DNA from: Candidatus Woesearchaeota archaeon
GTDB taxonomy: Archaea > Nanobdellota > Nanobdellia > Woesearchaeales > SKGA01
NCBI GenBank assembly: GCA_046546105.1
Contig: JBKGYN010000002.1
Location: forward strand, 10,913-74,912
Length of the DNA stretch: 64,000 bases
Reading direction: 5' to 3'
A program made the position numbers and the translations under genes. Positions 2,273 through 49,307 of the stretch are shown here, piece after piece (the stretch's first letter is position 1; every line of letters starts with the position of its first letter). The notes beneath the pieces are model-generated. The model did not search any database, was not told the DNA's origin, and was given only the letters and a program-made list of their open reading frames with translations.

Positions 2273-2273
2273 A

Positions 2274-19264: not shown

Positions 19265-19305
19265 ATAATGTATTGGTGCGCTCATGAGACATGGTAAAAA
19301 ACAGT

Positions 19306-19317
19306 CATATTTAAAAA
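19306..19317 (+). promoter_or_regulatory. TATA-box-like element (atttaaaaag) about 25-30 nt upstream of the pan start
   Basis: Short divergent intergenic region; A/T hexamer with archaeal TATA consensus-like spelling; ATG of MGANDQ about 27 nt downstream (leaderless-style). Confidence 0.4.
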
Positions 19318-19343
19318 GTCTCTTTCGTTCACCGGTTCTAATC

Positions 19344-20486: not shown

Positions 20487-20782
20487 TTCTTTCTTGGCTT
20501 TTTGCTTTCTTTTCTCAGCTTCTATGCTTTTTTTCGTGTATGCTTGATAATGAGGATTTGAAAAGCAAGAAGCCGATTGAAACTGTGTAGCGCTCAGAAG
20601 TTACATCCGTTCATCATCGGCCAGTGGCCTACAGTGGGTGTTCACTCTTTCATCGCACTATTGCACTTCAATGAATCTTTTTTGTATCAAAGACTCTAAA
20701 ACCTCTTGCTTCTCTGACGCGCACAAAAATCCGGATGCGTTATAAAACTTGTGTATCTTCTGGTTCTTTTAAATGCCATGCA

Positions 20783-24475: not shown

Positions 24476-24745
24476 TTAAAGGTTTTTGCTCTCGCCATAC
24501 AAGAACATTGCCCCATCGACAAGACTTGTTGTTATGAGTATTCCCTCGATAGTCAGCCATCCTGTAAGACCTAGGCTTAATGCGACGACACTATTCACGA
24601 TAAATAGTGTTATGAGAGAAAGCGCTACATGTTCAGTCGTTGTTCCTTTTCGCTTCCGGAACCAGCGAATGCTTATTGGCGCGGGGAGAATCGCCGTGAT
24701 AATCGCTAGTATGTGTATTGCCGAAATCATATCTTCATATTCCAT
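24476..24745 (-). CDS. small hypothetical membrane protein
   Basis: 89-aa ORF with 2-3 hydrophobic helices; could be spurious. Confidence 0.3.
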   Translation of the reverse strand: MEYEDMISAIHILAIITAILPAPISIRWFRKRKGTTTEHVALSLITLFIVNSVVALSLGLTGWLTIEGILITTSLVDGAMFLYGESKNL

Positions 24746-24789
24746 TCCATCATATTTATATATCTTCTCGTGGTGTTCCTTTGATTATC

Positions 24790-27432: not shown

Positions 27433-28577
27433 CCTTCATTCTCCTCGCCGACCAGTTGGACGCTGATATAATAGAATGAATTGAAAACTATCTGCACTCC
27501 AAGGATGAGTAGTGTTAATAAGATGATGCCTGCTCGCAGCTTCTCGATCCCGCCAAAGCCTGAATTCATCCACTCTACTACTATTGTTATCCCTATGATT
27601 ATGGGTGTGAGTACAAGGGCTCCTCCTGTCAGCAATCCTTTTTCCAGCGTCAGCCTTTTCTGGAGCCATTCGATGAATGCTCCATTATCATGATACTTGT
27701 TTGCGGCAAAGACCTTTGCGAAATAGCCTGTGATCAGCATCTGAAACCCTGTGATCGTAAACAGGCTTCCGATAAAAAGCGGGTGTGTGTGAAGCGTTAA
27801 GGTGCCGATCTGCACGGGTCCTGTTGCTAGCAGTCCTATGAGCAGAATTCCAATGAGAAAGATAATCATTCCGGGTAACAGGAATATTGTTGTCGGGCTG
27901 AAAAGGAGCATGAACCTCAAGTGTCTCCATCCGTCATTGAAACTATCGAGCTTTGAAGGCGTCTCTCTCGCTTTGTATCTGATCGGGAGCTCTCCGATGT
28001 TCAGCTTACGCTTCGCGGCCTTTATCACCATTTCCGTGGCGAATTCCATTCCGGGACTTGCAAGCTCCATTCGTTCAAGCTCTTCTCGCCTGATGAGCCG
28101 CATCCCGCAATGGACATCTCGCACCTTGCTCTTGAAAAGCATTCGTGTGAGTCCTGAAAGCAGCGGGTTGCCTATATGCTTGTGCAGCCCAGGCATCACT
28201 CCTTTTTCCAGCTCATACTTGAACCTGTTTCCTATCACCATATCGAGTTTCTCTTGCTCGAGATGTTTGTAGAATCGTTTGAGCTCTTTGAAATCATACG
28301 TCCCGTCACCATCTCCCATGAACACGAACCGTCCTTTCGCTTCCCGTATCCCTTTCTTATAGGCGTTACCATACCCTTTCTTTTCTTCGAAAACGACTCT
28401 TGCCCCTGCTTCTCTTGCTTTTCTTGCAGAACCATCTGTGCTGTTATTATCGATCACGATCACTTCATAATTTGCGTCGAGTTCTTTGGCACTCTCGCTA
28501 GCCTGCTTCACGCATCGTGCAATTGTCTGTTCTTCATCCAGGCAGGGTATGAGGATGCTTACGTCCGTATCATTCAT
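27429..28577 (-). CDS. GT2-family polyprenyl-phosphate glycosyltransferase (Dpm1/GtrB/ArnC-like) with C-terminal TM helices
   Basis: VSILIPCLDEE, VIVIDNNSTDGS, FVFMGDGDGT (DxD), followed by 3-4 TM helices; 4-nt overlap with the GT4 gene. Confidence 0.8.
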   Translation of the reverse strand: MNDTDVSILIPCLDEEQTIARCVKQASESAKELDANYEVIVIDNNSTDGSARKAREAGARVVFEEKKGYGNAYKKGIREAKGRFVFMGDGDGTYDFKELKRFYKHLEQEKLDMVIGNRFKYELEKGVMPGLHKHIGNPLLSGLTRMLFKSKVRDVHCGMRLIRREELERMELASPGMEFATEMVIKAAKRKLNIGELPIRYKARETPSKLDSFNDGWRHLRFMLLFSPTTIFLLPGMIIFLIGILLIGLLATGPVQIGTLTLHTHPLFIGSLFTITGFQMLITGYFAKVFAANKYHDNGAFIEWLQKRLTLEKGLLTGGALVLTPIIIGITIVVEWMNSGFGGIEKLRAGIILLTLLILGVQIVFNSFYYISVQLVGEENEG

Positions 28578-28640: not shown

Positions 28641-28800
28641 GAGCCCGCGGAGACTTTCATGCTGGCGCATTCGGTCGTTATCGACCTTGCTCGCCAACTA
28701 TTTGAACTCCGGACCACACGATTTCTTTCACTGACGTTCGGAACATTACCGGGCCGTCAATGTATCAGTCGTGCACTCCACCAGGCTAAGCTACGGGCTC
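28641..28800 (-). tRNA. probable tRNA (anticodon GAT, Ile) carrying two insertions: an approximately 40-nt intron in the anticodon loop and an approximately 47-nt insertion between T-loop and 3' T-stem
   Basis: Minus strand: GAGCCCG-TA-GCTT-AGCCTGGTG-GAGT-G-CACGA-CTGATA-[insert]-A-TCGTG-TGGTC-CGGAG-TTCAAAT-[insert]-CTCCG-CGGGCTC; all stems pair; the D-arm is a near copy of that of the adjacent tRNA-Asn; lies 6 nt downstream of tRNA-Asn on the same strand. Confidence 0.5.
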
Positions 28801-28806
28801 AAAATG

Positions 28807-28878
28807 CGCCTCCGGCCAGATTCGAACTGGCGACCAATCGGTTAACAGCCGATCACTCTACCACTAAGCTACGGAGGC
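28807..28878 (-). tRNA. tRNA-Asn (anticodon GTT)
   Basis: GCCTCCG-TA-GCTT-AGTGGTA-GAGT-G-ATCGG-CTGTTAA-CCGAT-TGGTC-GCCAG-TTCGAAT-CTGGC-CGGAGGC-G; canonical cloverleaf, no encoded CCA. Confidence 0.85.
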
Positions 28879-29276
28879 ATGTCGATTTCATTCCGCTACT
28901 GGAGCGTTAGCGAATCATAGCCATCGGGACAGTTTCGAAATCCTGAGGACTCGGGCGAATTTCAGATTCGAATGCGACTGACTGAAATCAGCTCCCTTAA
29001 GCTACGGATACATATTCTTCTGTTCAGGGCTTGAGCAACTTTGTTGCGAAACCTCTTCGTTGCGCCTGGACAAACGCAGCCAGACGAATCTCCTCGTAGG
29101 ACTTATTCTCTTTTTATAAATTTAACGCGCCAGCGACTTCACATTCATTTATAAAACGCCTTTATTGTTCATATTTGGCAGTGGTTATGTTTTCAGAAAA
29201 CTTTAAATAAGAGTTGTCGAGCTATAGAATTAATATAGCGATACTTTATAGTTTATGACTGTGTTGGTGTGAGGAA

Positions 29277-29540
29277 ATGACTACAGATGTTTCGAATAAG
29301 ACGGTATTGATTCTTGTCGTCCTTGCTGTTATTGTCTCTACTTTAGGGACCTTTACTGTAGTTCACACCGTTAACCAGCAGCAGGATGCTTCCGCACTCC
29401 CTGATGATGATGGTTTTGATGGTGGAACCAGTGGCGAAGTGAGGATCGGCATTCAAGAGCCTGCAGACGTGCCTGAAGCTACTGGGCAAGTCCTTCTAGA
29501 GATATATGAACCCGAAAACGATAATGGTGGTGTGAATTAA
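29277..29540 (+). CDS. small secreted/membrane protein with pilin-like N-terminus, member of local paralog family
   Basis: MTTDVSNKTVLILVVLAVIVSTLGTF has the same N-terminal pattern as ORFs 29542 and 31936; acidic C-terminus. Confidence 0.45.
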   Translation: MTTDVSNKTVLILVVLAVIVSTLGTFTVVHTVNQQQDASALPDDDGFDGGTSGEVRIGIQEPADVPEATGQVLLEIYEPENDNGGVN

Positions 29541-29541
29541 C

Positions 29542-30168
29542 ATGGCAATTTCAAACAAGACATTGAGTGTGCTGCTCATCGCAGCGATCGTGGTCTCCGT
29601 TGGTGGAACCTTTTTCAGCCTTATGATGCTTAATACTCCGACCGGACCGACCGGTTTCAATACCCAAGAAGAGGGTGAAGTTATCCTGAACGTTCCGGAA
29701 TCCTTATCCATCACCCTCGAGGACAGCAGCATTGATTTCGGCGATTGTACGCCTGATACTACTGACACCATCTATGTAGATAGTTTCCAGGGAGCGGGAG
29801 ATGTTGATAATAGCAACTGTTCGGATACGGGATCTTTCCCTGATAACATGACGCTTGTGAACAACGGTAATGTTGATGCTCTTGTCAATTTGACAACCTC
29901 TGATAACGCATCAGCTTTGTTCGGCACCACTGGTGATAATGGGTTTGCTTACAAGGTCCAGAACCAGTCTTCAAACCCTGGTTGTGCAGGGACTATGCAA
30001 CAGAACTACTTGAACTTCACCGATCCTGCTATCGGTTATGATGTCTGTTCTAACCTGACGGCTGTTTCTGGTCAGAACAGGGTTGAAATCTTCGCTGCTG
30101 CGTGGCTAAGTCCTCAGGCGGCCGGTGGTGGTGAAGCGACCTGGACATTTGACGCTTACGCGAGTTAG
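29542..30168 (+). CDS. secreted protein, paralog family A (pilin-like N-terminus)
   Basis: MAISNKTLSVLLIAAIVVSVGGTFF; shares ILNVPESLSITLEDSSIDFGDC ... VNNGNVDA ... with ORF 31936. Confidence 0.55.
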   Translation: MAISNKTLSVLLIAAIVVSVGGTFFSLMMLNTPTGPTGFNTQEEGEVILNVPESLSITLEDSSIDFGDCTPDTTDTIYVDSFQGAGDVDNSNCSDTGSFPDNMTLVNNGNVDALVNLTTSDNASALFGTTGDNGFAYKVQNQSSNPGCAGTMQQNYLNFTDPAIGYDVCSNLTAVSGQNRVEIFAAAWLSPQAAGGGEATWTFDAYAS

Positions 30169-30177
30169 GGTGGGTGA

Positions 30178-31362
30178 TTGACAGTGGGTTTCTCTGATCG
30201 CTTATCCTGCTTTTTTTTCTTGTTCCTATTCTCTCTTGTTCTCGCTTCTTCCCAGACAGGTGCTATAGGTGTTTCTCCTGCTGTCCAGACTGTTGAGTAC
30301 GTTGAGAATGAGACTGTAGCGATAGAACTTTTGGTTACTGGTCTTTCCAATGACGTAGAGCTTTCTGCAAGCGGCGCTTTATCTGACTTCATCACGTTCT
30401 CTGATGATGTTGTCGAGTATTCCGGTTCAAAGGCCACCATTGATATCAACATCACGTTTCCTCCATACGATCAGATAGACATCTTCGGGGAGCAGAAATC
30501 CTATATCCGTATTCGAGAATTGCCTGAAGGGAATTCAGGTCTTTCCGCCACCACTGCAGTGAATCCTACTGTCAAGGTCTACATTCCTAACCCTGGCTTG
30601 TATGCTGAAATCGAAGAGCTTTCTGTTCCTACTATCAATGAAGGGGAGGATACCTATTATTCTTTCAAGATCAAGAATCGCGGCACTGATAACTTCTCGG
30701 GACAAGAAGCGGTCCTCAAGGTCACTGACATGTCGGGGCAGACTGTCGATACCTTCACGATTACTGACGTAGCCGCTTCTCCTGATGGTTTTTTCGAAGC
30801 TGAAGGGGAGATTCCGTCCTCATCCTACGAACCTGGAAAATACACTGCGGAAGTGGTTTTCGATCTTGATCCTGATCGTTCTCCTTTCGTCAGTTCAACT
30901 TCTTTTTTTGTCGGTACCACCGATGTTGTGCTTGTCAATTATACTGATACGGTAACTGCTGATTCCATCAATAAGGTGGATCTCGAATTACAGAGTTTGT
31001 GGGGTTCTCCTCTTGAAGGTATAAGAGCTTCTGTGGATGGTCTTGATGGCGGCGAACAATCCTTGCCTGTCATTGATTTCGAGCCTTTCGAGAATAAAGT
31101 AGTCACTGCTTTTGTTGATGTGCCTTCTACCAATAAGACTTCGTTCAATTCCTCGCTGGTCCTCGAATTTCCAGAAGATATCGCTTCAGAACCTTCAAAG
31201 ACTGTTCCTCTGCACTTCGATGTCAAGCAGGAGGATGATACTGGTAGTATATTCTCGCTGACCACGACCACGGCTTTGGTCGGTATCATCACAGTACTTG
31301 TTATTGTGATTCTTGTTTTGTGGCTTTCATCAAGGAAGAAAGCGAAAAAACGAGGGGGCTGA
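30178..31362 (+). CDS. surface protein with CARDB-like domain and C-terminal TM anchor
   Basis: Signal peptide, KNRGTDNFSGQEAVLKV (CARDB-like), C-terminal LVGIITVLVIVILVLWL plus a basic stop-transfer segment. Confidence 0.55.
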   Translation: MTVGFSDRLSCFFFLFLFSLVLASSQTGAIGVSPAVQTVEYVENETVAIELLVTGLSNDVELSASGALSDFITFSDDVVEYSGSKATIDINITFPPYDQIDIFGEQKSYIRIRELPEGNSGLSATTAVNPTVKVYIPNPGLYAEIEELSVPTINEGEDTYYSFKIKNRGTDNFSGQEAVLKVTDMSGQTVDTFTITDVAASPDGFFEAEGEIPSSSYEPGKYTAEVVFDLDPDRSPFVSSTSFFVGTTDVVLVNYTDTVTADSINKVDLELQSLWGSPLEGIRASVDGLDGGEQSLPVIDFEPFENKVVTAFVDVPSTNKTSFNSSLVLEFPEDIASEPSKTVPLHFDVKQEDDTGSIFSLTTTTALVGIITVLVIVILVLWLSSRKKAKKRGG

Positions 31363-31402
31363 CTCCTGACGGGCGTTTTTCTGTGAAAAATATATAAATC
31401 GG

Positions 31403-31936
31403 TTGCACGCTCAGGGTAGTATGATGGTAAAAAAGACACCTTCGCGAGAAAATCGTTCTTCCCGGAAGAAGGTTTCTTCAAAAAAATCAGCGTCGGCTAC
31501 GAGAAAGTCCGGGCTTGATAATAATCGTATCATCGCTGCAGTATCCTTGCTTGTCATCCTTATCTCTCTTATCGTGATGGTATTTTTTGTCTCTGACATT
31601 CCTGGTGATCAAAAGCCCTTCTCACGTTCTACTATTGATTATGATTTCACGGTTTCTGAAGAGGTCGGTTTCGTTCTTGACGATGATATGCTTCATTTCG
31701 GAGGAGGTCCTCGCGGGGCTAAACTCAAGCGGGGTCTTGATATCAATTCTTCTCGCGATGCTCGTGTCGTCCTCTCTTGGCAGGGTCCTGGTAATATTTC
31801 TGTTGACCGGAACAATTTCTTTGTAGCTGCAAAAAATTCCTCTTCAGTGATCTTCACCCTTGAAATTCCTCCTGGCATCTCGTCTGGTAATCATTCAGGC
31901 GAGATCTACATTGATTTATATGATTCTGCTCGCTGA
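31403..31936 (+). CDS. type-II membrane protein with basic cytoplasmic N-terminus
   Basis: About 45 aa K/R/S-rich N-terminus, one TM (IIAAVSLLVILISLIVMVFFV), and an extracytoplasmic domain of about 110 aa. Confidence 0.45.
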   Translation: MHAQGSMMVKKTPSRENRSSRKKVSSKKSASATRKSGLDNNRIIAAVSLLVILISLIVMVFFVSDIPGDQKPFSRSTIDYDFTVSEEVGFVLDDDMLHFGGGPRGAKLKRGLDINSSRDARVVLSWQGPGNISVDRNNFFVAAKNSSSVIFTLEIPPGISSGNHSGEIYIDLYDSAR

Positions 31937-32574
31937 TGTGGTTGATGATGGATAGACAGAAAGATTTCATGCTGGTTGGCGCGACACTTGCTGTCTTGCT
32001 CTCTTTGTTTTCGCTCATCTATTCTTTTGCGATCATCGATTCCCCTTCCCCGACTGGTCACATCTCAAAAAATGCCTCTGGAAAGGTTGATATTTCTGTC
32101 AGGACCTTTCTTTCGATAACACTTGTCAATTCCACTATTGACTTTGGTGCTTGTGCCATCAATCGGACAAAGAATTACTCTGTCATTGATAGTGATCTTG
32201 GTCCTCACGGTCTTGATAATGATGATTGTACTGGTGGTAATTTCCCTGGCTATCTCATCGTCGAGAATAATGGTAATCTCGATGCCAACGTCTCAGTGAG
32301 CGCAAATTATACTGCTGATGAGTTTTTCAATTATTCCGGCTCGTGGTATGCTTTTAAAGCCCGTGATCATCCTGACAGACCTGGTTGTCTTAACGCTGAC
32401 CTGCAGGATTCTTATCAGAATTTTTCCACGACCGACCCTATGATGGCTTGCGACAACCTCACTTTTTCCCCTGGAAATGACGCATTTCAAGTCTCTGTAA
32501 AGGCATTCTTGTATCGGAACACGACCAGTCGCGACTCTGCATCTATCCTGTTTGAAGCACATCAGGTCGGATGA
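31936..32574 (+). CDS. secreted protein, paralog family A
   Basis: Similar to ORF 29542 along the body (SITLVNSTIDFGAC...VENNGNLDANVS...); start overlaps the stop of the preceding gene. Confidence 0.55.
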   Translation: MWLMMDRQKDFMLVGATLAVLLSLFSLIYSFAIIDSPSPTGHISKNASGKVDISVRTFLSITLVNSTIDFGACAINRTKNYSVIDSDLGPHGLDNDDCTGGNFPGYLIVENNGNLDANVSVSANYTADEFFNYSGSWYAFKARDHPDRPGCLNADLQDSYQNFSTTDPMMACDNLTFSPGNDAFQVSVKAFLYRNTTSRDSASILFEAHQVG

Positions 32575-32631
32575 TGAATCCTTTTCTCAAAAAGCTTTAT
32601 ATACTATCTCCCTTCTTATCCTTGGTTAGGG

Positions 32632-34590
32632 ATGGTGGTCCGGGCTAATTTCAGAACTCTTGTCTTATTGCTTGTTTTCCTGCTTAGTGTGCAGACTGGC
32701 TTTATAGTCTATCACGCGGTTGAAGTCATCTCGCCTGATATTCATGCCCGGGCGAGCGCGGGTATGTTCTCGCTATGTCTCAACTATCAGCCTGAATTCA
32801 ACTTCACCTGCAACACTTCTATGCGCCAGAACCATGATTATCATTGCCAGCTCAATTATTCTGACCCTGACAATGATTCTGTAACTTTTTTCTATGAGAA
32901 CCTCTCTGGATTTTTTGAAGCTGAGATCACCGATGATGGTGTCCTGACTGCAAATCCTGATCAGGAGATGGTAGGTGAGAGGGACGTGCTCATCGGTGTA
33001 GTTGATGAGAAGAATTGCTCAAACAGTGAAGCTGCTGAAAACGTGACTTTCGAGATTGAAAATGTCAACGACCCTCCTGAATACTATCGTCAGATAAGTG
33101 ATCTCGAATGGTCTCTTGACGAGACTTTCAGGGGTATCTTTCTCAAGGATTATTTCAGGGATCCCGATGGTGACCCGCTCTCCTACTCGCATTCTTTCTC
33201 ATCATCACAGTTTTCTGCCGACATCATATCCAGTTCTGAAGTTATTTTTTCCGCTGATGAGTGTGGCGAGGGTTATGTGACCTTCACTGCGTCAGATCCA
33301 TATAATGAGACTGCGCAAAGCCATATCATCAAAATCAATGTTCCTTGCGAGGAGCCTGAATCTTCATCCGGCGGTTCTGCCGGATCTACTTCCCCTGAAG
33401 AGTGCATTCCGGAATGGCGGTGCAAGGATTGGAGCGAGTGCTATCCTAACGGCACGCAAAAACGGCAATGTACAGATATCCATGGTTGTAGTGAGGATTA
33501 CAAGCGGAATTTCTGGAGGGAGTGCGAATACATTCCTCAATGTGAAAACGGTATTCAGGATCCTGACGAAGAAGGTGTTGATTGCGGTGGTCCTTGTCCT
33601 CCTTGTGAGACATGCGATGATGGTATCCTGAATAACCAAGAGGAAGAAGTCGATTGCGGCGGTCCGAACTGCCCTCCTTGTAAGAATTGTTCTGATGGTA
33701 TTCAGAACTATGGTGAGACTGGTGTTGATTGCGGTGGTCCTTGTCCTCCTTGTGAGACATGTGATGATGGTATCCAGAATCAGGGCGAGACTGGTGTTGA
33801 TTGCGGTGGTCCTTGTCCTCCTTGTCCTGATACTGAGACTCCCGCGCCTGTTGATGATCGTTCGTGGCTCACTGCAGTCCTCATCCCTATAGTGCTTGGT
33901 CTCACGGGCCTTGCTGTCATTTACCGGCTGTTCCGGAGGAGTATTCACGCTTTTGCTGCGAGGATGTGGTGGTATTTCACCAGTAAGGTGCCCAAACAGG
34001 TGCTTCTCACGGAAAATCAGAAGTCGTATTTGTTCAACGAACTTGATCGACTTCTTGGTGAGCAGCATGGCTCTTCTGACCTGGACGAATTCCAGGATGA
34101 TCTGGCTATCCTTTTCAGGAAGTTCTACTCATATCTGATTGATGAAGCCTATGATCTTGAAAATGCCAAAGAGAAGATCGTGCAGTTGAAGACGGTCAAG
34201 GAAGTGAAAAAATTCCTCGTCACGGGATACTCTGTCACGCTTGGTATTGAAAAGACCAAGAAGATGTCTCGGGAGATGCTTGATGTCCATGCTGAACTCC
34301 TGCGTGAGCTTGTGATTTCTCTAAGTAGGGTTGATCGTGAAGAGATTGCAAGAGTTCTTGATGAAAAGACTCCTGCTGAAAAACCAACGCTCTCTAACGT
34401 GCTTGGCTTCTTGTATAACAGCATTCTTGCCTTGCAGTTCAGCGAGATCGAGATCTCCAAAGAGAAATATCTTAAAGCCTTGTATCTCTATGAAGCCCTT
34501 CCTGTAAGTGATCAGGAGAACGTGTATTCGACGCTTCATCTGACATTCGGTCTTATCAGCTACGTCTCATCTTACGCTTCCAAGAAATGA
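32632..34590 (+). CDS. cell-surface protein: cadherin-like domain, four Cys-rich tandem repeats (CGGPCPPC), TM helix, cytoplasmic alpha-helical domain
   Basis: Signal peptide; VNDPPEY cadherin-like motif; 4 x about 31-aa units C-x2-C-x-DGI-x-N-x-(G/E)E-x-(G/E)VDCGGP(N)CPPC; TM LTAVLIPIVLGLTGLAVIY; about 220-aa cytoplasmic tail. Confidence 0.65.
   Translation: MVVRANFRTLVLLLVFLLSVQTGFIVYHAVEVISPDIHARASAGMFSLCLNYQPEFNFTCNTSMRQNHDYHCQLNYSDPDNDSVTFFYENLSGFFEAEITDDGVLTANPDQEMVGERDVLIGVVDEKNCSNSEAAENVTFEIENVNDPPEYYRQISDLEWSLDETFRGIFLKDYFRDPDGDPLSYSHSFSSSQFSADIISSSEVIFSADECGEGYVTFTASDPYNETAQSHIIKINVPCEEPESSSGGSAGSTSPEECIPEWRCKDWSECYPNGTQKRQCTDIHGCSEDYKRNFWRECEYIPQCENGIQDPDEEGVDCGGPCPPCETCDDGILNNQEEEVDCGGPNCPPCKNCSDGIQNYGETGVDCGGPCPPCETCDDGIQNQGETGVDCGGPCPPCPDTETPAPVDDRSWLTAVLIPIVLGLTGLAVIYRLFRRSIHAFAARMWWYFTSKVPKQVLLTENQKSYLFNELDRLLGEQHGSSDLDEFQDDLAILFRKFYSYLIDEAYDLENAKEKIVQLKTVKEVKKFLVTGYSVTLGIEKTKKMSREMLDVHAELLRELVISLSRVDREEIARVLDEKTPAEKPTLSNVLGFLYNSILALQFSEIEISKEKYLKALYLYEALPVSDQENVYSTLHLTFGLISYVSSYASKK
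33560..33840. repeat. near-identical approximately 93-bp tandem repeats (4 units) encoding the Cys-rich modules
   Basis: gttgattgcggtggtccttgtcctccttgtgagacatg(c/t)gatgatggtatcc recurs; units 3 and 4 are almost identical at the nucleotide level. Confidence 0.8.
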
Positions 34591-34733
34591 TATTTCGCTA
34601 TCTCCTCAGGATGATGTTTTTCTTCAGGTCTCTTGTTCTCTTATGCTGATGCAGACGATCTTCTTTTTGAAACTTTTTGCTCGTGTTTTTTTTCAAGACT
34701 CGGTTGTGGAATAAGAACATGTTGTTTTTATCT

Positions 34734-35957
34734 TCACTCATCCCTGAGCGTATCGGCCGGTTGTAGCTTTGCTGCTTGAAGTGCCGGGAGCGTTCCCGCT
34801 AGCATGCCCACTAGAAATGAGAATAGCATCGCGCCAAGGAATAATTCCCATGAGAAATGCGCTTGCAGGAAGGTTTTTCCAAGCGCGGCCCTGCTAATCT
34901 CTTCGACTGCCTTGGCAAGTCCTGATCCAAGTATGATGCCGATCACTCCTCCTGCTACTCCGAGAAACCCTGATTCTATGGCAAAGAGTGTGAAGATATC
35001 TGAATTTCGCGCGCCGATCGCTTTCATGATGCCGATTTCCTTGTTCCTTTCAAGGACTGACGTGTACATCGTGTTCATGATGCCCACGCCGCCGACAAAC
35101 AGGCTGATTCCTGCAATCCCTATGAGGACTGCTCTGACGACATCAAGGATGGTTTGGAAATTATCAAGCAGATCTTCAGGTGTCTCTATCTGGAATGTCG
35201 TATCCTCAATATCCTCCCCACGATACCTTGCAAGTTCTTTCTTGATATTCTCTGCCACTGCTAAAGGGTCTTCGCCGGTATTGACTTTCACGATGATCAT
35301 GTCTACCCTGTTTTTTATTCCTGTAATTTCTCTGAATGTGTCTTCGGGCATGACAAGCATCCTATCATCCACTGAACTCCCTATCGGGTTGTAGAATCCG
35401 GCCACGTGGAACTTCTCCCCGTTGATATGTACATTGCTGTTCAATTGGAGGTTCTCTCGATCATATAATCCTCTGGTGGCGTGGTGGTATCCTGCAACGA
35501 CTGTTTTTCCATCCCCCTGCTCAAGATCCCTTCCTTTCCAGATGTCTTCTGTGAACCCGTCTTGGGTGAGATCCAATGATTTGCTGTCTGTGGGGATTCC
35601 TGCAATGCTATAATATCTGACCTCGTCCCGGTAGGAGATGTGTGCGCTTGTCATGACATAGCTTGTCGTGCTATCGATGCCTGATAGTCGTTTGATAAAA
35701 TCGTAATCCTCCTTTCTAAGCTGTTCGGCTCCCGCTCCTTCTCCCATGGATCCGAAGAGAGAGCTTGGTTCTATGAAGAGCTTATCGCTTCCTATATCTT
35801 CGAATTCCTGGTATATCGCTTCTTCCATCCCTTGTCCAAGGCTGACCAGGGATATCACTGCAGCTATTCCTATAAAGATTCCTATGAGTGTCAGCCAGCT
35901 TCGTAGCTTTCGCCTTGAGAGTGATTTCAATGCAATCCTGAAATAATCCTGTATCAT
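34734..35957 (-). CDS. ABC transporter permease, FtsX/MacB-like
   Basis: N-terminal TM, large extracytoplasmic domain, C-terminal FtsX core of 3 TM (GILKAIGARNSDIF..). Confidence 0.8.
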   Translation of the reverse strand: MIQDYFRIALKSLSRRKLRSWLTLIGIFIGIAAVISLVSLGQGMEEAIYQEFEDIGSDKLFIEPSSLFGSMGEGAGAEQLRKEDYDFIKRLSGIDSTTSYVMTSAHISYRDEVRYYSIAGIPTDSKSLDLTQDGFTEDIWKGRDLEQGDGKTVVAGYHHATRGLYDRENLQLNSNVHINGEKFHVAGFYNPIGSSVDDRMLVMPEDTFREITGIKNRVDMIIVKVNTGEDPLAVAENIKKELARYRGEDIEDTTFQIETPEDLLDNFQTILDVVRAVLIGIAGISLFVGGVGIMNTMYTSVLERNKEIGIMKAIGARNSDIFTLFAIESGFLGVAGGVIGIILGSGLAKAVEEISRAALGKTFLQAHFSWELFLGAMLFSFLVGMLAGTLPALQAAKLQPADTLRDE

Positions 35958-35970
35958 CGTTTGGACCTTC

Positions 35971-37185
35971 TTATGTTCTCAGCGCCTCGACCGGATCCAT
36001 CTTTGCAGCTTGTCGTGCCGGTAGCGTTCCTGAAGCTGCTCCTAGTATGAATGCGAATAATAATGCTCCTATGAGTAATGATAGTGGAAAGCTCGCTTGA
36101 AGTATGTCTGTTCCGAGTTGCGCTTGCGCGATGGTTTCCACTGTTTTGCTGATGCCCGCTCCGAGGACAATTCCTATAACTCCTCCTGCCATTCCCAGCA
36201 TCCCTGATTCTATGAGGAAGATGCGTAGAACATCTGGGTTTCTCGCTCCTATAGCTTTCATGATGCCGATATCTCTACGTCTCTCAAGCACTGACGTATA
36301 CATAGTGTTCGCGATGTTGATGCTCCCGACAAGTAGGCTGATGGCGGCTATTCCGACAAGAAGCACTTGTACTATGTTGAGGACGCTTTGGAATGATTCA
36401 AGCGTATCTTGTGGTGTGCTGATCGTGAAATCCTCTTCGCCGGGATCGAGATTCCGATCTCGTCGCATCTCTCTTTCAGCGATTTCCTTGATCTGCAGGA
36501 GGTTATCCTCATTTCTCACGACTGCGGTTATGAGGCTGTAATCGTCTTCTGAAAGGTTGTACAGGTCGATCATCCTCTCTTCGGACATGAGAATATCATT
36601 GTCCACAAAAGGAACGCCTGTCTTTTCAAGTATGCCTGCGACCCTGAAATCTCTCTCTTTGATGGTGACTTTCTCTCCGATGTCGGGCATTCGTTCATCG
36701 AACTTGATATTCGATCCTAGTGTTACCAGATTATGGTCTTCATAGCCTGTGATACGTCCTTCTTTCGCTTCAAGCCCGAATTGCTTGATCGCCTGCTCGT
36801 ATTCTTTCCGTCCTTCAGGCATCGAAAAAGCGAATCCTTGTGTGCTCTCACCCCTTGAAGTTATGGACGTTCCTTGTATGAACCGTCCCATGGCGAGTTT
36901 CATTCCCGGTATGTCTTCAAGAAGTCTCACATCATCCTCGCCAACCCTTCCGGCGGCATTGCTTCCCGGCGGCCCGAAGTTCGATCCTGCTCCTTGTACT
37001 GTGAACGCATCCACTCCCATCATGGCGAACTGTTCTGTCACTGCATCTTCAAGTCCTTCACCGAGGCTGACCAGGGCAACTATTGCCGCTATACCTGCAA
37101 AGATCCCTATGAGTGTCAACCAGCTTCGAAGCCTTCTGTGAAGCAGGTTGTTGACCGCCATTAGTATGCTTTCTTTCAGGTTCAT
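35971..37185 (-). CDS. ABC transporter permease, FtsX/MacB-like (paralog)
   Basis: Same architecture as the 34734 gene (MKAIGARNPDVLRIFLIESGMLG). Confidence 0.8.
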   Translation of the reverse strand: MNLKESILMAVNNLLHRRLRSWLTLIGIFAGIAAIVALVSLGEGLEDAVTEQFAMMGVDAFTVQGAGSNFGPPGSNAAGRVGEDDVRLLEDIPGMKLAMGRFIQGTSITSRGESTQGFAFSMPEGRKEYEQAIKQFGLEAKEGRITGYEDHNLVTLGSNIKFDERMPDIGEKVTIKERDFRVAGILEKTGVPFVDNDILMSEERMIDLYNLSEDDYSLITAVVRNEDNLLQIKEIAEREMRRDRNLDPGEEDFTISTPQDTLESFQSVLNIVQVLLVGIAAISLLVGSINIANTMYTSVLERRRDIGIMKAIGARNPDVLRIFLIESGMLGMAGGVIGIVLGAGISKTVETIAQAQLGTDILQASFPLSLLIGALLFAFILGAASGTLPARQAAKMDPVEALRT

Positions 37186-37264
37186 AGTCAGCTCTCTCGA
37201 TCGTCTTTAGTATTGGTGTGCTCGGCTAAAAAAGAGATTATAAAAGAACAGCTTTGATTAGCTT

Positions 37265-38494
37265 CTATTCTCGTTGTTTCTTTTTCTTCCTATGTCTTCT
37301 GACACCTCTGATGACAAAGAACCCTGCCACTACGATGATGGCGATGAGTATTGGTGAGATGCTTCCGTTGTTGTCTTCCTGGTTTTTATCATACCTCATC
37401 GCTAGCTCGTAGATCTGCTCGTATTCCTTGTTGTTATCATCCATATAATTGGCCGCTAGACGAAGCTTGGCATTCTCGCGTGAAGTCTTTAGGCGGAAAT
37501 CCTGTGTTCGGTAGTCGTCAGAATCCAGATCGCCGATGTAATCCTTGTCACTTGATAGGATGGTGTATCCTTCTCCTTCAAGGAGCTCTACATCAAGGAA
37601 CTTGAGGTCGTGGATTCCCTTGTTCACGAACTTTATGGTCGCAGTTCCTTGTTCTTCTGCGTTTGCAATCGTGGTTTGGTCGAGAAATACTTTGAGCTGC
37701 GGTTTTGCCATCACTGCAACGCCTATGATATTGGTCTTTTCGTACTCTGTTCCTTCTTCATCGAAATATGTTGTGGCCACGGGGATCTTGTAGAATCCAG
37801 GTCTTGCTTCTGCATCCGTGTTCAACTGGTATGTGAGTGTTTTTAGTTCACCTGGATTGAGCTTGCTCACACGTTGCTCTTCAGAGCTGCCTACTGGAGT
37901 GAACGGAAGTTCTCCTGACTGTCCTGCTTCTGGGTTGATGAGATTGAGCTGCACTCCTATATCTCTGAGGACTACATCGGCCGTGTTTTTCACTGTCAAC
38001 TTCACCTCCCCTGGTTCTCCTGATATGAACTCCTCGGGATCGGTGTTGACATCGCTGATACTGAGGGCTGCTTGGTTGCTTTTGACTCTGATGGTTTTTG
38101 TCGTTTCCTGCCAGTTATTGTTACCTATGTCGCTTGTAAATCTTATCTTGAGATCGTTTTCGCCAACTACTGCTTCACTTGATACTTTTAACTTGAGATC
38201 GACCACATAGCTTCGCTGCCCTTTGAGGTTTCCGATAACTTCGCGCGCTTCGCTCTGGCTGATGATCGTGAATGGGAATTGATCCACCACTTCAATAGCT
38301 GCGTTCTTCGCGTCCTCGTTGCCGAGATTTTCCAGCTCCAGGGTCACCGTCACGTATTGTCCTGGTTGTGCCGGACTCGGCTCATATTTGAGCAGATCAA
38401 CTGTTAGTTGAGCTTCATCTTGTGCTTGTGCTATTGGCATCGTTGCAAGGATAAGTGCCAGAATGACTATCAGAATCATTGATTTCGTTTTCAT
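37265..38494 (-). CDS. secreted CARDB-like protein with C-terminal TM anchor (putative substrate-binding or accessory component of the ABC system)
   Basis: Signal peptide MKTKSMILIVILALILATMPIAQA, ELENLGNEDAKNAAIEV / VKNTADVV / FVNKGIHD repeats, C-terminal ILIAIIVVAGFFVI followed by RGVRRHRKKKKQRE. Confidence 0.6.
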   Translation of the reverse strand: MKTKSMILIVILALILATMPIAQAQDEAQLTVDLLKYEPSPAQPGQYVTVTLELENLGNEDAKNAAIEVVDQFPFTIISQSEAREVIGNLKGQRSYVVDLKLKVSSEAVVGENDLKIRFTSDIGNNNWQETTKTIRVKSNQAALSISDVNTDPEEFISGEPGEVKLTVKNTADVVLRDIGVQLNLINPEAGQSGELPFTPVGSSEEQRVSKLNPGELKTLTYQLNTDAEARPGFYKIPVATTYFDEEGTEYEKTNIIGVAVMAKPQLKVFLDQTTIANAEEQGTATIKFVNKGIHDLKFLDVELLEGEGYTILSSDKDYIGDLDSDDYRTQDFRLKTSRENAKLRLAANYMDDNNKEYEQIYELAMRYDKNQEDNNGSISPILIAIIVVAGFFVIRGVRRHRKKKKQRE

Positions 38495-38519
38495 ATTCGT
38501 TCACCTTGTTGTTTTTGTC

Positions 38520-39254
38520 CTATCGTGAGTTTTCGTGTTTTGTCGTGATGATTTGGCCGTCTCGCAGGTGCTCGACTCTGTCTGCAAACTGCGCCACATC
38601 CTCATCGTGTGTGACCATGATGATTGTCTTCCCTTCTTTCTCATGTAGTTTTCTCAGGAAATCCATGACGGTATCTCCTGTATTGCTATCAAGATTTCCT
38701 GTCGGCTCATCAGCTAGGATGACCTCGGGATCGACTGCCAGTGCCCGTGCGATTGCCACTCGTTGCTGCTGTCCGCCGGATAGTTCTGATGGTTTGTGGT
38801 TCATCCTGTTTCCGAGATCGACCAGCTTGAGAAGCTCTTCTGCCTTTTTTTGTCGCTTGGCTTCCGAGGTTCGTTGGAACATGAGTGGTAGCATGACATT
38901 CTCTTTCGCTGTGAGCGTGTTGATAAGATTGAATTTCTGGAATATGAACCCTACTTTTCTTCCTCTGATTTGGGCGAGTCCTGATTCTGAGTATCTGTTG
39001 ATGTTCTTTCCTTCAAGCTTGATGGTGCCTGATGTCGGTCTGTCAAGTACTCCTATCATGTTCATGGCTGTTGATTTCCCGCTTCCTGAAGGCCCCATGA
39101 CTGCAACGAACTCGCCCTTATTCACTGTCAGGTTCAACCCTCTAAGCGCGTGTACTTCCGTCTCTCCCATAAGGTATGTCTTCCACACATCCTTGATCTC
39201 GATAAGGGCGTTCTCTTTCGCTGGCGTTCTTTTCATTGAGGCTGTCACAGTCAT
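38520..39254 (-). CDS. ABC transporter ATP-binding protein (MacB/LolD-like)
   Basis: Walker A GPSGSGKST, Q-loop, signature LSGGQQQRVAIARAL, Walker B ILADEPTGNLD, H-loop. Confidence 0.85.
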   Translation of the reverse strand: MTVTASMKRTPAKENALIEIKDVWKTYLMGETEVHALRGLNLTVNKGEFVAVMGPSGSGKSTAMNMIGVLDRPTSGTIKLEGKNINRYSESGLAQIRGRKVGFIFQKFNLINTLTAKENVMLPLMFQRTSEAKRQKKAEELLKLVDLGNRMNHKPSELSGGQQQRVAIARALAVDPEVILADEPTGNLDSNTGDTVMDFLRKLHEKEGKTIIMVTHDEDVAQFADRVEHLRDGQIITTKHENSR

Positions 39255-39776
39255 TCACCGTTTCATTATTTCTTCGCGTTTTTTCTTGATGGTTCTCATC
39301 ATCTCTGAAAAGATTTCTTCCATGAGCTGTATTTGTTCATAATGGTTTTCCATCACTTTCAGATGTTCCTTGAAATGCTCTTTCCATTTCTTGTTCTTGG
39401 TCTCTTTGATGGTTTGTTTCATATCCTTGATGATGATTGGAAGTTTCTCAAGTCCCATTGTTATCTGTGTCTTATGGGCTGTTTCCATCTTTTGCTCCAG
39501 GCTTTTTATGAAATTTCTTTGCGGTTTCACATAGATTTTCTTCGAGCCGGGCTTGCGTACCCGTTCAACGACCTTGAGGTTTTCAAGATATCTTACTGTA
39601 TTGCTCACTGTGGCAAGTGAATAATCGGTTTTTTCGGCCAATTGCTCCAATGACTGCTCTTCCGGCTCCGTGAATGCTATAGAGACTATTTTAGCCCCTA
39701 CTCGTGGAGCTCCTTGTGATTTGAGTATGTTCAGCACTAGTTGTTCGTACTCTTTGATAGCTTCTGGTTGTTTCAT
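39255..39776 (-). CDS. winged-helix transcriptional regulator (MarR/TrmB-like) heading the ABC operon
   Basis: N-terminal wHTH (EQSLEQLAEKTDYSLATVSNTVRYLENLKVVERVRKPGSKKIYV); coiled-coil C-terminus; stop abuts the ATPase gene start. Confidence 0.5.
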   Translation of the reverse strand: MKQPEAIKEYEQLVLNILKSQGAPRVGAKIVSIAFTEPEEQSLEQLAEKTDYSLATVSNTVRYLENLKVVERVRKPGSKKIYVKPQRNFIKSLEQKMETAHKTQITMGLEKLPIIIKDMKQTIKETKNKKWKEHFKEHLKVMENHYEQIQLMEEIFSEMMRTIKKKREEIMKR

Positions 39777-41581: not shown

Positions 41582-42307
41582 TCACCTGTCAATTGATGGT
41601 GGGAGTATGCTTCCTCTGAAAAGCAATGTGTGTAATGCAATCAGCATCATTGCATGTTCATCGCTACCTTGCTGCATCGCCGCTTCCAATCCTTTCTCAA
41701 TAGGTGTTACCTTGATATTTGCATCGTAGCCTTTCAAACTCACCGTACCTGATCTCACCTGGCATGTGTATTGCTGATTATTATATGTGAACTTGATATC
41801 TTCTGCCTTGGTCTTCATTCCCGGTCTTTGCTTTATGTTGCTTGAAACGATTTCATTTCCATTCTTATTGATCGTTATTGTCGGTCCGGTAGTCGCATCG
41901 GTAATCTTTTGTTTCATAGAAACAGTCCATGCACCTTTCAGTTCATATGAATATGTTGTCTTGTGCAAAGTTGTCTTGCATATTGCTTGCACTTCTTTAT
42001 CATTGAGATACGCATAGATTTTTTTCGGGAACCTGAGTCCTTCATGCTTGCTTATGCTGAAATTACTATAGAGTGCGAAATGGTTGTGTTGTTTTGAAAG
42101 CTCTGCTCTTAATGTTGTTCTTTTTTGTTTCTCCTGTTTTCGTGCTACCACGATCATGGCTGCAAACCCGATAACTAATAAGATGATGCTTGGTACTAGC
42201 AGCATATTGTTTCCGGAAATTCCTGTATATATCAGTGATATGACTGCTGCAATGATGCTGATGATAGTAATGACAGATCCTGTTGTTGGTTTTTGCTTCA
42301 TTCTCAT
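41582..42307 (-). CDS. hypothetical membrane-anchored protein
   Basis: N-terminal TM segments (VITIISIIAAVISLIYTGI, LLVPSIILLVIGFAAMIVV) then a soluble domain. Confidence 0.4.
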   Translation of the reverse strand: MRMKQKPTTGSVITIISIIAAVISLIYTGISGNNMLLVPSIILLVIGFAAMIVVARKQEKQKRTTLRAELSKQHNHFALYSNFSISKHEGLRFPKKIYAYLNDKEVQAICKTTLHKTTYSYELKGAWTVSMKQKITDATTGPTITINKNGNEIVSSNIKQRPGMKTKAEDIKFTYNNQQYTCQVRSGTVSLKGYDANIKVTPIEKGLEAAMQQGSDEHAMMLIALHTLLFRGSILPPSIDR

Positions 42308-48450: not shown

Positions 48451-48541
48451 TTATCCTGTGTTCATGAGATGTTTTCCCCTGCGTTATTTTTTTCTGTATT
48501 TCTTTGGGTTTTAGAACGAGCTGGACTGGTGTGTGTTTGCT

Positions 48542-49168: not shown

Positions 49169-49307
49169 TGTTAATACTTCAAGTGCTTTATAAATCTTAT
49201 CTTCTTTGAATCGCCATCAACCCCTTTTGCTGTGTGGTCCGTGTAGTTTTTCTTCTCCAGTGGTGTCATAAGCTATTTATATGTGCTGCTGCTGATATGC
49301 AGGTATT

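Follow-up and report, generated by a model that had tools for sequence, protein, structure and literature searches.

The window, the whole stretch of 64,000 nt analyzed here, derives from a Candidatus Woesearchaeota MAG (GCA_046546105.1, contig JBKGYN010000002.1, positions 10,913-74,912, forward strand). Eleven ORFs were verified in the region of interest (Table 1), six on the plus strand (g1 to g6) and five on the minus strand. The plus-strand genes are co-directional (29277-34590) and show operon-like packing, with successive gaps of 1, 9, and 40 bp, an overlap, and a gap of 57 bp. As originally predicted, all six appear to encode exported or membrane proteins; an N-terminal hydrophobic segment was found in 6/6, and g3 and g6 carry a second membrane segment. 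The intergenic leader upstream of g1 contains AT-rich TATA-like boxes, e.g. TTTAAATA at 29202-29209, and is a candidate promoter. The g1 ATG is preceded by GAGG at 5 nt.

Table 1. Features of the surface locus and the adjoining ABC operon, in window coordinates.
Feature	Coordinates	Strand	Basis
Intergenic leader upstream of g1	28879..29276	+	Sequence read, inference only
g1, 87 aa	29277..29540	+	ORF, family alignment, hhalign to g2 family
g2, 208 aa, putative major subunit	29542..30168	+	Family searches, AF2 model, fold matches, motif conservation
g3, 392-394 aa	30178..31362	+	Signal peptide, three Ig-like domains, membrane anchor
g4, 171-177 aa, type II membrane protein	31403..31936	+	ORF, alignment, membrane-segment analysis
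g5, 208-212 aa, g2 paralog, putative second subunit	31936..32574	+	Pairwise similarity, family membership
g6, 652 aa	32632..34590	+	Big_9 match, family alignment, profile search
MacB-type permease 1 (MacB_PCD + FtsX), 407 aa	34734..35957	-	E 5e-25 and 2e-24; MacB E 3e-38
MacB-type permease 2 (MacB_PCD + FtsX), 404 aa	35971..37185	-	Pfam and NCBIfam profile matches
CARDB/DUF11/NPCBM_assoc-type surface protein, 409 aa	37265..38494	-	Three families above thresholds
ABC transporter ATPase, 242-244 aa	38520..39254	-	PF00005 ABC_tran on record; Walker motifs in translation
Putative winged-helix regulator, 173 aa	39255..39776	-	HVO_A0114/MarR-like, below threshold

The original prediction grouped g1, g2, and g5 as three paralogs with a common N-terminus and conserved body blocks. 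We found g2 and g5 to be true paralogs (32% identity, E 2e-26) within a family of at least 1,551 cluster representatives, for which no Pfam model exists. The common N-terminus (SNKT...IVS.GGT) holds for g1 and g2 but not for g5, whose hydrophobic segment is different and ordinary-looking, and the body blocks shared by g2 and g5 extend to g1 only in its first strand motif. In g2, a conserved helix at the N-terminus (residues 1-30, nt 29542-29631) is followed by the linker site TGFN|T (nt 29650-29664), where T37 and G38 are 99-100% conserved across the family, by the conserved strand GEVILNV (nt 29674-29694), and by a beta-sandwich with four conserved cysteines and eight N-glycosylation sequons. 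The AF2 model (pLDDT 90.6) shows the helix and the beta-sandwich separated by a floppy, low-confidence linker of ~20 residues. g5 keeps PTGHI (nt 32050-32064), the strand GKVDISV (nt 32080-32100), and four cysteines, and has ten sequons. Of 240 family members, 170 have a small-x-small site (median position, residue 40), with G or A at position -3 in 170/170 of these and A at position -1 in 161/170. Its consensus, [TS]-[G/A]-x-A|[T/S], occurs with both SNKT-type and ordinary N-termini, and the GxVxLxV strand starts a median of four residues past it. In the window's own proteins the proposed -1 position is occupied by N (g2) and I (g5), and the proposed c-region, ~10 residues, is long.

The best solved fold matches of g2, among the matches listed, were mostly donor-strand-exchange fibre subunits, including CsuA/B, FimG, PapA, FimA, and CS20, and no type IV pilin was found among them. 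The earlier description as 'pilin-like' is thus apt with respect to strand-exchanging fibres but not in the type IV sense. Chaperone folds matched no better than generic Ig domains. The g2 fold is a jelly-roll/Ig-like subunit fold resembling solved members of the TasA superfamily; PDB sequence searches with the g2 family, family profile included, gave no match.

In the small protein g1, a conserved signal/anchor at the N-terminus (D-V-S-N-K-T..IVS.LGT) is followed by two short strand motifs of amphipathic character, GEVRIGI (nt 29433-29453) and GQVLLEI (nt 29484-29504). No globular domain is present; the protein is only a g2-type N-terminus with two GxVxLxV-like strands. Its family profile aligned to that of g2 with 96.9% probability (hhalign, E 1.3e-10), a g2-family HMM run over all window ORFs matched g1 at E 5e-7, and in almost all loci g1 precedes g2. 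g3 has a canonical signal peptide (A-I-G|V-S-P, nt 30262-30279), three beta-sandwich domains of Ig-like/CARDB-like type in the predicted model, and a C-terminal membrane helix (nt 31258-31326) followed by a basic tail. Its initial assignment as CARDB-like is supported by this model, but profile matches of the g3 family stayed below threshold (CARDB in 5/9 members, best E 9e-4; MG2, E 0.0076); its best fold match was the enterococcal WxLIP. In g4, a basic cytoplasmic tail and a membrane helix (residues 43-61) precede a small beta-sandwich that shares a 'strand-strand-LHFG' start with g2, to whose family profile g4 shows weak similarity (71% probability). g4 and g5 co-occur across loci.

The domain layout originally read from g6, a cadherin-like region, four Cys-rich repeats, and a cytoplasmic domain, was confirmed. 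Behind an N-terminal signal peptide/anchor lie two cadherin-like repeats (~nt 32845-33381), a Cys-rich region (nt 33403-33825) with four CGGP(N)CPPC repeats (residues 318-398), a membrane helix (residues 411-434, nt 33862-33933), and a conserved, helical cytoplasmic domain of 218 residues (nt 33934-34587), for which no relatives were detectable. Big_9 was matched at 28.1 bits (cut-off 23.6), the family profile matches protocadherin-15 and cadherin-23 at E 1e-5, and the family alignment contains an invariant F..DPD.D.L motif in agreement with the cadherin calcium-site pattern DxDxD..LxY.

Comparison with DPANN relatives showed joint conservation of the cluster. Every locus with enough flank has the gene order g1-g2-g3-(g4-g5)-g6, in ~15 distinct lineages with g2 identities of 30-77%, and this order persists where the flanks differ completely; in closer relatives, synteny extends to housekeeping flanks (Trm5, Dus, Hel308-like helicase, PAN). 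We conclude that g1-g6 is a conserved multigene surface locus, rather than a row of membrane proteins brought together by chance. In four distant lineages, g6 is immediately followed by a sequon-rich, C-terminally anchored protein of 1283 aa, a possible S-layer protein. Among the scanned ORFs of the window there was neither a type IV pilus ATPase nor a PilC-type platform, in accordance with the original prediction, and also no prepilin peptidase or signal peptidase. Likewise, no assembly ATPase, PilC/FlaJ-type platform, or prepilin peptidase was present within 10 kb on either side of nine annotated loci, and such genes may lie elsewhere in the genome.

Based on folds and motifs, our preferred reading, to which we tentatively assign a probability of about 0.45, is that g1-g6 is an operon for an ATPase-independent surface assembly specific to and widespread in Woesearchaeota-type DPANN. 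The same folds and motifs suggest that this assembly is probably built by strand complementation, as a putative fibre. g2 and its paralog g5 would be exported by Sec, and a type I signal peptidase would probably cleave them at the small-x-small consensus ~40 residues in. Cleavage would expose a short N-terminal extension with the amphipathic strand G-x-V-x-L-x-V, which could complete the beta-sandwich of a neighbouring subunit by donor-strand complementation, giving a fibre or chain that is thin, N-glycosylated, and stabilised by disulfides. Precedents for such a strand-complemented chain would be TasA fibres, Pyrobaculum bundling pili, Sulfolobus threads, cannulae, and chaperone-usher pili. 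g1, with the g2 N-terminus and two strand copies but no acceptor domain, would therefore be a donor only, and hence may act as a cap, initiator, or membrane tether. g3 is proposed to be an anchor or assembly partner that would serve to nucleate the assembly or to keep it at the membrane, like AbpB, TapA, or WxLIP, and g6, with its cadherin-like, Cys-rich, and cytoplasmic parts, may be an anchor or adhesin. Given how DPANN archaea live and that g6 is cadherin-like, g1-g6 may serve in host attachment. A tightly packed, lineage-wide operon of this kind, carried by a tiny archaeon of symbiotic type, may specify a surface fibre or attachment complex not yet described in archaea.

A close parallel in layout is the AbpA/AbpB locus (TasA superfamily) of Pyrobaculum calidifontis, where a ~205-aa pilin with signal peptide and jelly-roll is directly followed by a ~400-aa protein with, like g3, a signal peptide and three beta-rich domains. 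That locus also lacks chaperone, usher, and ATPase, and has further membrane proteins and a winged-helix regulator nearby. However, no sequence relationship to g2/g3 is detectable, g2 differs from AbpA in its much longer, highly conserved N-terminal helix, four conserved cysteines, and Cys-loop insertion, g3 differs from AbpB in its C-terminal membrane anchor, g1, g4, and g6 have no counterpart, and the phylum is Thermoproteota rather than DPANN. The Bacillus tapA-sipW-tasA system is similar in its family-wide conserved signal peptide with a GGT motif, in its G-T-L-D-L donor strand at the N-terminus, to which the conserved strand of g2 would correspond, and in its accessory protein for anchoring or initiation, the role proposed for g3. 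The dedicated peptidase of the Bacillus operon is missing from the window; in a single DPANN lineage (L031), a co-directional Peptidase_S26 signal peptidase gene lies beside the operon, two genes upstream, which resembles the Bacillus arrangement. Membership in the TasA family was not demonstrable by sequence: PF12389 (Peptidase_M73/TasA) matched 0/107 family members at E<=0.1, and hhalign gave 0.7% probability against TasA alone and 10% against a TasA/CalY profile (E 0.003, 35 columns, 'GGT...G.V.L' stretch only), the latter built from Bacillus only, so that a full HHpred run could change the outcome.

The threads of Sulfolobus acidocaldarius (Saci_0406) and the cannulae of Pyrodictium (CanX/CanA) consist of Sec/SPI-type subunits that need no ATPase, chaperone, or usher to join by donor-strand complementation, which resembles the assembly proposed for g2, although g1-g6 shares no sequence similarity with them. 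Thread and cannula subunits are heavily N-glycosylated, as the sequon-rich g2 and g5 are predicted to be. Saci_0405, a putative cap that donates a strand but cannot accept one, would have its analogue in g1, which is far smaller and without globular domain. Chaperone-usher pili (Fim, Pap, Csu, CS/CFA) resemble g2 in subunit fold and, as predicted for g2, have an N-terminal extension with alternating hydrophobics behind a Gly. In contrast to these pili, the locus has no outer-membrane usher or PapD-type periplasmic chaperone, there is no outer membrane, and sequence similarity is absent.

Alternatively, although we consider it rather unlikely, the proteins could form a static membrane-tethered complex without a fibre, with g1, g2, g4, and g5 as type II and g3 and g6 as type I anchors. 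Such a hetero-oligomeric envelope or adhesion platform, possibly S-layer-linked, would use strand complementation only between partners, e.g. g3 into g2. Conservation in g2 is highest in the N-terminal helix (family entropy 0.98 vs 2.52 bits in the body), which is unusual for a disposable Sec signal and equally compatible with a retained anchor and a pilin-like helix. One face of the helix is conserved (L8, L12, A15/I16, S19, G22/T23, S26/L27), suggesting that it packs specifically against other helices in the membrane. Type II anchoring is clear for g4, and the possible S-layer protein 3' of g6 would also suit such a platform. In addition, the gene inventory parallels the WxL clusters of Firmicutes, namely Lactobacillales and Bacillales (PMC10599100, PMC9772566), which comprise small WxL, large WxL, WxLIP (DUF916-DUF3324-TM), and small LPxTG proteins, i.e. 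two small beta-sandwich proteins, a tiny anchored protein, and a large adhesin-like protein. WxLIP, the best structural match of g3, likewise has a signal peptide, tandem Ig-like domains, and a C-terminal membrane helix, and is predicted to supply, from its own fold, the strand that completes the WxL sandwich (PMC10599100). However, g3 has three domains rather than two, g6 is without a g2-like domain (g2-family HMM over the window ORFs), the g2 and g3 families gave no Pfam match to WxL (PF13731), DUF916, or DUF3324, and the WxL system is bacterial and bound to peptidoglycan, which archaea lack. The nearest folds of g2 are mostly fibre subunits, and the small-x-small site is retained even in paralogs without the conserved helix, which argues for cleavage.

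It is still less probable that the proteins are divergent type IV pilins, whose leader, M-x-[DE]-[IV]-S-N-[KR]-[T/S/A/G], would be processed as a non-canonical class III signal by a prepilin peptidase whose gene lies elsewhere, with the helix as pilus core, a distant PilB/PilC-type machine, and g1 as a small pilin. As in archaeal type IV pili and archaellins, a short leader (5-8 residues, K/R at -2, T/S/A/G at -1) precedes ~22 hydrophobic residues and a beta-sandwich head, the N-terminus, common to g1 and g2, is the most conserved region, and paralogs share an operon. Archaellins are expressed by Woesearchaeota (PMC11606122), and type IV machinery therefore exists in the phylum. But the class III signal, named as a check in the original prediction, was not supported: a FlaFind-type regular expression matched only 15/240 family members, the usual motif being SN[KR][TS]L, with T or S and not G/A as commonest -1 residue instead of the canonical [KR][GA] site, and the motif is missing in g5-type paralogs. 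No Pfam/NCBIfam match to Pilin_N, DUF361/TIGR02537, or Arch_flagellin was obtained for g1, g2, g5, or 107 family members, the flexible linker splits helix from domain, and neither the window ORFs scanned nor any syntenic flank holds ATPase, platform, or prepilin peptidase. Finally, that these are unrelated exported glycoproteins (individual adhesins, solute-binding or envelope proteins) without a joint structure is very improbable: the syntenic housekeeping flanks of closer relatives allow part of the conservation to be simple vertical inheritance, but the order survives amid completely different flanks, the gaps are only 1-57 bp, 4/6 genes share an N-terminal anchor and/or strand design, and g1 is unable to fold alone.

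Convergent to g6, the predicted set of a putative regulator, ABC ATPase, CARDB protein, and two FtsX permeases was confirmed. The permeases match MacB_PCD/FtsX (E 1e-19 to 1e-25) and MacB (E 1e-37 to 3e-38), and together with the ATPase make up a MacB-type ABC transporter of LolC/LolE/LolD-like composition. It differs from MacB/LolCDE-type transporters in its archaeal context, its CARDB-type anchored partner, and its putative winged-helix regulator. The CARDB/DUF11 protein has a signal peptide, a C-terminal anchor, and only one sequon, and homology to g3 was not detectable (hhalign to the g3 family, 6.9% probability). The predicted linkage of this operon to the cluster is frequent but not universal; they adjoin in 8 of the 12 lineages with enough flank, and the ABC transporter may be a frequent yet dispensable partner. 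Its orientation to the cluster is convergent in most lineages and co-directional in two.

The source of the window is a Candidatus Woesearchaeota (DPANN/Nanobdellota) metagenome-assembled genome, and the eleven open reading frames named in the original prediction were all recovered with their coordinates unchanged. The six co-directional genes of the surface operon, g1 to g6, are separated in order by 1, 9 and 40 bp, an overlap, and 57 bp; all six start with a hydrophobic segment, to which g3 and g6 add a further membrane helix. The g2 and g5 products, identical to the NCBI proteins ACLFTH_00665 and ACLFTH_00680, each contain four cysteines conserved throughout the family, and N-glycosylation sequons number eight in g2, ten in g5 and ten in g6. 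A Pfam and NCBIfam scan of all 11 proteins gave no match for g1, g2, g4 and g5. Profile matches identified the products of the convergent downstream operon (the ABC operon), as predicted, as two MacB_PCD+FtsX permeases, a CARDB/DUF11/NPCBM_assoc protein with a signal peptide and a C-terminal anchor, an ABC ATPase and a winged-helix protein. The label "CARDB-like" given to g3 is based on matches that are sub-threshold; g3 and the CARDB protein of the ABC operon were ruled out as paralogs (hhalign probability 6.9%). The latter protein has one sequon in 409 residues versus 8-10 each in g2, g5 and g6, and because of this contrast the two sets of surface proteins may be handled very differently.

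Coordinates of the surface operon, its neighbours and other features in the window and in fetched DPANN loci
Sequence	Feature	Coordinates	Strand	Length
Window	g1	29277-29540	+	
Window	g2	29542-30168	+	208 aa
Window	g3	30178-31362	+	392 aa
Window	g4	31403-31936	+	
Window	g5	31936-32574	+	
Window	g6	32632-34590	+	
Window	Cys repeat of g6 (residues 258-398)	33403-33825		
Window	CARDB protein of ABC operon	37265-38494		409 aa
Window	Large-protein set	44599-52269		
L006	Large-protein set	14976-20598		
L007	Large-protein set	14377-20640		
L008	Large-protein set	15652-19404		
L031	Large-protein set	14137-20642		
L031	Tat genes, Peptidase_S26, DUF6445	6420-9690		
L017/L027	Enlarged g6 and g2-type paralogs	13023-19082		
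Window	Membrane protein, GT4, GT2	24718-28577		
Window	Parvulin	14809-16017	-	
L033	Parvulin	2057-3271		
Window	Intein-bearing ORF	16125-18812	+	895 aa
Window	tRNA-Asn(GTT)	28806-28878		
Window	Region surrounding tRNA-Asn	28641-29010	-	
Window	tRNA-like stretch	28641-28800		
Window	SLATT_6-matching gene	41582-42307	-	241 aa
Window	Giant open frame	58381-63999	+	>=1,873 codons

Three genes, g1, g2 and g5, had been thought to share one N-terminus and common body blocks. The N-terminus ([DE][IV]SN[KR]T...IVS.GGT) is common to g1 and g2, whereas the hydrophobic N-terminus of g5 differs; the body blocks are common to g2 and g5, which are paralogs (32% identity, E 2e-26), but not to g1, which has the first strand motif only and no body. 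Comparison of family profiles relates g1 to g2 with 96.9% probability (E 1.3e-10), the g2 HMM, run against all window ORFs, picks up g1 at E 5e-7, and g4 shows weak similarity to the start of g2 (71% probability by profile alignment). Apart from the N-terminus in common with g2, g1 consists only of two strands, at residues 53-59 and 70-76, of the type GxVxLxV, the conserved strand motif of the g2 family that occupies residues 45-51 of g2, and its product cannot fold alone. By analogy, it makes sense as a putative strand donor (cap, initiator or tether), comparable to Saci_0405 in threads or TapA for TasA (PMC9715654, PMC9245690).

The cadherin-like nature of g6 was confirmed by an above-threshold Big_9 match and by matches of its family profile to protocadherin-15 and cadherin-23 at E 1e-5, and the four predicted CGGP(N)CPPC repeats are present. 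The protein also has a membrane helix and, on the cytoplasmic side, a conserved helical domain of 218 residues, for which searches detected no relatives. A repeat of ~25 residues, C-x-D-G-I-x-N-x-x-E-x-G-V-D-C-G-G-P-C-P-x-C, occurs in at least four copies, is strongly conserved in the g6 homologues (family alignment A9) and has no Pfam model. By HMM test, neither g6 nor the 1283-aa protein encoded further downstream contains a g2-like domain of the kind suggested by analogy to "large WxL" proteins.

An AlphaFold2 model of g2 (pLDDT 90.6), with a 107-sequence alignment as input, consists of a helix (residues 5-31), a low-confidence linker (32-44) and an eight-stranded beta-sandwich. Its best solved fold matches are mostly donor-strand-exchange fibre subunits; scores are modest, with generic ASH/MSP/Ig domains nearly equal, and the case therefore rests on the strong enrichment of the donor-strand fibre class, not on any single match. 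We favour, at a probability of roughly 0.45, a surface assembly that needs no ATPase and forms by complementation of beta-strands; a thin glycosylated fibre is its most likely form. The products of g2 and g5 would be the subunits, g1 a strand-only cap or tether, g3 an anchor resembling AbpB, TapA or WxLIP, and g6 a cadherin-like anchor or adhesin, with the MacB-type operon as a frequent accessory. In their arrangement g2 and g3 (208 and 392 aa) parallel a Pyrobaculum pair, the pilin AbpA of 204 aa and, after it, AbpB of 410 aa, a protein with a signal peptide and three beta domains of which the first is TapA- or macroglobulin-like (PMC9245690).

Column entropy rises from 0.98 bits in the helix through 1.69 at residues 45-51 to 2.52 in the body, so that the N-terminus is the most conserved part of g2. 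The conserved helix positions N5, L8, L12, A15, I16, S19 (100%), G22, T23, S26 and L27 lie on one face, and T37 (99%), G38 (100%), A40 (85%) and G45 (93%) follow after the helix. Of 240 full-length family members, 170 contain the motif [TS]-[G/A]-x-[A]|[T/S], whose median position is residue 40; all 170 have G or A at position -3, and 161 have A at -1. Judged by its residues, this putative cleavage motif (T-G-x-A|T) fits the -3/-1 rule of type I signal peptidase; it is present in 127/177 members with the SNKT-type N-terminus and in 43/63 with an ordinary one, and g3, for comparison, has a textbook signal-peptidase site, A-I-G|V-S-P. GxVxLxV starts a median of four residues after the motif, which would give the layout of signal peptide, short N-terminal extension and amphipathic donor strand seen in TasA-superfamily and chaperone-usher subunits. 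We considered the invariant "PTG" as a sortase-like signal and dropped this idea because the fuller motif fits the ordinary rule and archaea, to our knowledge, lack sortases. The favoured model leaves one main feature partly unexplained, namely why the N-terminal helix is so extremely conserved.

Relatives of g2 numbered 8 in a single-sequence search, 112 in a profile search and at least 1,551 in an exhaustive profile search, the last being representatives of 50%-identity clusters at E<=1e-3 (838 at or below 1e-10). The named members are all DPANN "hypothetical proteins" of about 200-240 aa without a Pfam domain. No family match was obtained in a Pfam scan of 107 members, PF12389 (TasA) included, the best being stray matches to DUF4402 and HYDIN in two members each. 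When PDB sequences were searched with g2, g5, g6 and the profile of the g2 family, neither g2 nor g5 had a match. In hhalign, the family scored 0.7% probability against TasA and 10% against a TasA/CalY profile built from Bacillus plasmids, the latter confined to the "GGT...G.V.L" stretch. Sequence thus gives no support for membership in the TasA family, and the likeness is at the level of fold and motif only. Within the searchable literature library, no paper was found to describe the g2 family or of donor-strand fibres in DPANN.

The rival that survives best, although unlikely, is a non-filamentous, membrane-tethered complex of the WxL-cluster type, possibly S-layer-associated. WxLIP, the best fold match of g3, is anchored in the membrane as the partner of WxL proteins, whose sandwich it is predicted to complete with a strand of its own (PMC10599100); the defining domains of WxL systems, like those of chaperone-usher systems, are absent. 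Divergent type IV pilins are more doubtful still. As originally predicted, no pilus ATPase or PilC-type gene was found, and neither the window nor nine annotated flanks contain type IV machinery; the class III motif is present in 15/240 members, and the family has no pilin profile match and no type IV pilin fold match. On these grounds the g2 family does not match type IV pilins, yet the reading retains a small probability because K/R occupies position -2 of the leader and a small residue position -1, and because Woesearchaeota express archaellins (PMC11606122).

That the genes merely encode unrelated exported proteins is very improbable, and the remaining probability belongs to explanations outside these readings. 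Window proteins were compared with the ORFs of 33 fetched loci, and scans with the single usable peptide pattern returned 10 loci from genomes and 7 from metagenomes. The expectation that the locus is kept as a unit in relatives held: the order g1-g2-g3-(g4)-(g5)-g6 was observed wherever the contig was long enough, even in lineages with a g2 identity of just 30-40% and wholly different flanks. The minimal core is g1-g2-g3-g6; g4 and g5 travel as a pair, and some loci instead have two adjacent g2-type genes. The operon is part of a conserved core in many Woesearchaeota/Nanobdellota genomes.

The ABC operon adjoins g6 in 8 of the 12 lineages with enough flank, convergently in the window, L004, L005, L011, L012 and L017/L027 and co-directionally in L013 and L014; as adjacency survives inversion, a functional link to the surface operon is suggested. 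It is absent from the flank in L006, L007, L008 and L031, where g6 is directly followed by a ~1,250-aa protein that matches Big_9/He_PIG in L006-L008 and has no recorded Pfam family in L031. After this come a gene on the minus strand, coding for 220 aa in L006/L007 and for 135 aa in L031, and MoxR-DUF58-BatA, which in L008 lies beyond reach, the flank ending inside the next gene. The same set is found 10 kb downstream in the window. Its large protein, 1283 aa long, has a signal peptide and a C-terminal anchor, contains Big_9/cadherin-like repeats and 68 N-glycosylation sequons, and could be an S-layer protein; a minus-strand gene for 208 aa and MoxR(AAA_3)-DUF58-BatA/VWA come after it. Because homologues of this large protein directly follow g6 in four distant lineages, with the rest of the set in three, its association with the operon is more ancient than that of the ABC transporter.

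In L031 the genes immediately before g1, all co-directional with it, encode TatC, two TatA proteins, a signal peptidase of 475 aa (Peptidase_S26) and a DUF6445 protein. The placement of the peptidase, in this single lineage, recalls tapA-sipW-tasA and the position of archaeal AbpX, reported adjacent to signal peptidase I (bioRxiv 10.1101/2024.12.30.630787); a BLAST search with the S26 protein gave no match in the window or in the remaining fetched loci. In L017/L027, the g6 homologue reaches 2,019 aa and is accompanied by three g2-type paralogs, the convergent FtsX permease still being next. Just upstream of the operon in the window are genes for a multi-pass membrane protein of 532 aa that has no Pfam family, a GT4 glycosyltransferase and a GT2 whose C-terminal domain is a membrane domain; this trio, which recurs in L005, may add glycans to the sequon-rich proteins of the operon. 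A peptidyl-prolyl isomerase of the parvulin type, SurA/PrsA-like and thus a foldase of the extracytoplasmic space, is encoded ~13 kb upstream of the operon in the window and ~7 kb upstream in L033.

DPANN archaea are thought to depend on physical host contact, we know of no attachment structure in the Woesearchaeota/Nanobdellota radiation, and most surface genes there are annotated "hypothetical". A host-attachment role of the operon is plausible. Should the donor-strand fibre hold true, TasA-like ATPase-free filaments would reach into DPANN, which surveys of such filaments do not mention (PMC9245690; bioRxiv 10.1101/2024.12.30.630787), and mature g2, g1 and the g3 ectodomain would be expressible targets for structures and for labelling uncultivated cells. 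The proposed design is TasA-/thread-like, combined with a distinctive N-terminus, a strand-only protein, a cadherin/Cys-rich transmembrane partner and frequent MacB-type linkage. If the N-terminal helix were retained, or cut in a prepilin-like manner, it would represent a new kind of signal or anchor. A more speculative proposal, to which we give little weight, is that the operon makes an archaeal surface filament of a new class, assembled by a separate route. Subunits would be held in the membrane by the unusually conserved helix until the MacB/LolCDE-like machine and its CARDB-type partner extracted their anchors, much as Lol extracts lipoproteins, and released or handed them over to strand-exchange polymerisation. 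This would be a donor-strand pilus pathway driven by ATP and related neither to type IV nor to chaperone-usher systems, giving a filament through which Woesearchaeota would contact hosts.

Several other features of the window were noted. Upstream of g1, next to tRNA-Asn(GTT), a stretch with complementary ends (GAGCCCG...CGGGCTC) and a D-arm-like start, TAGCTTAGCC, resembles an intron-bearing or split tRNA; neither ARAGORN with introns allowed nor Rfam confirmed the flanking stretches as tRNAs. The giant open frame, in the lowest-GC part of the window (0.39-0.42), is stop-free, begins with a signal peptide and runs off the window end; Rfam finds nothing in it, and it looks like another giant surface protein. 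The 895-aa ORF contains an intein (Intein_splicing and LAGLIDADG homing endonuclease). Between the ABC operon and DHH/ThiF genes lies a gene for a two-membrane-helix protein with a sub-threshold match (E 4e-5) to SLATT_6, a type of domain typical of conflict-system effectors.
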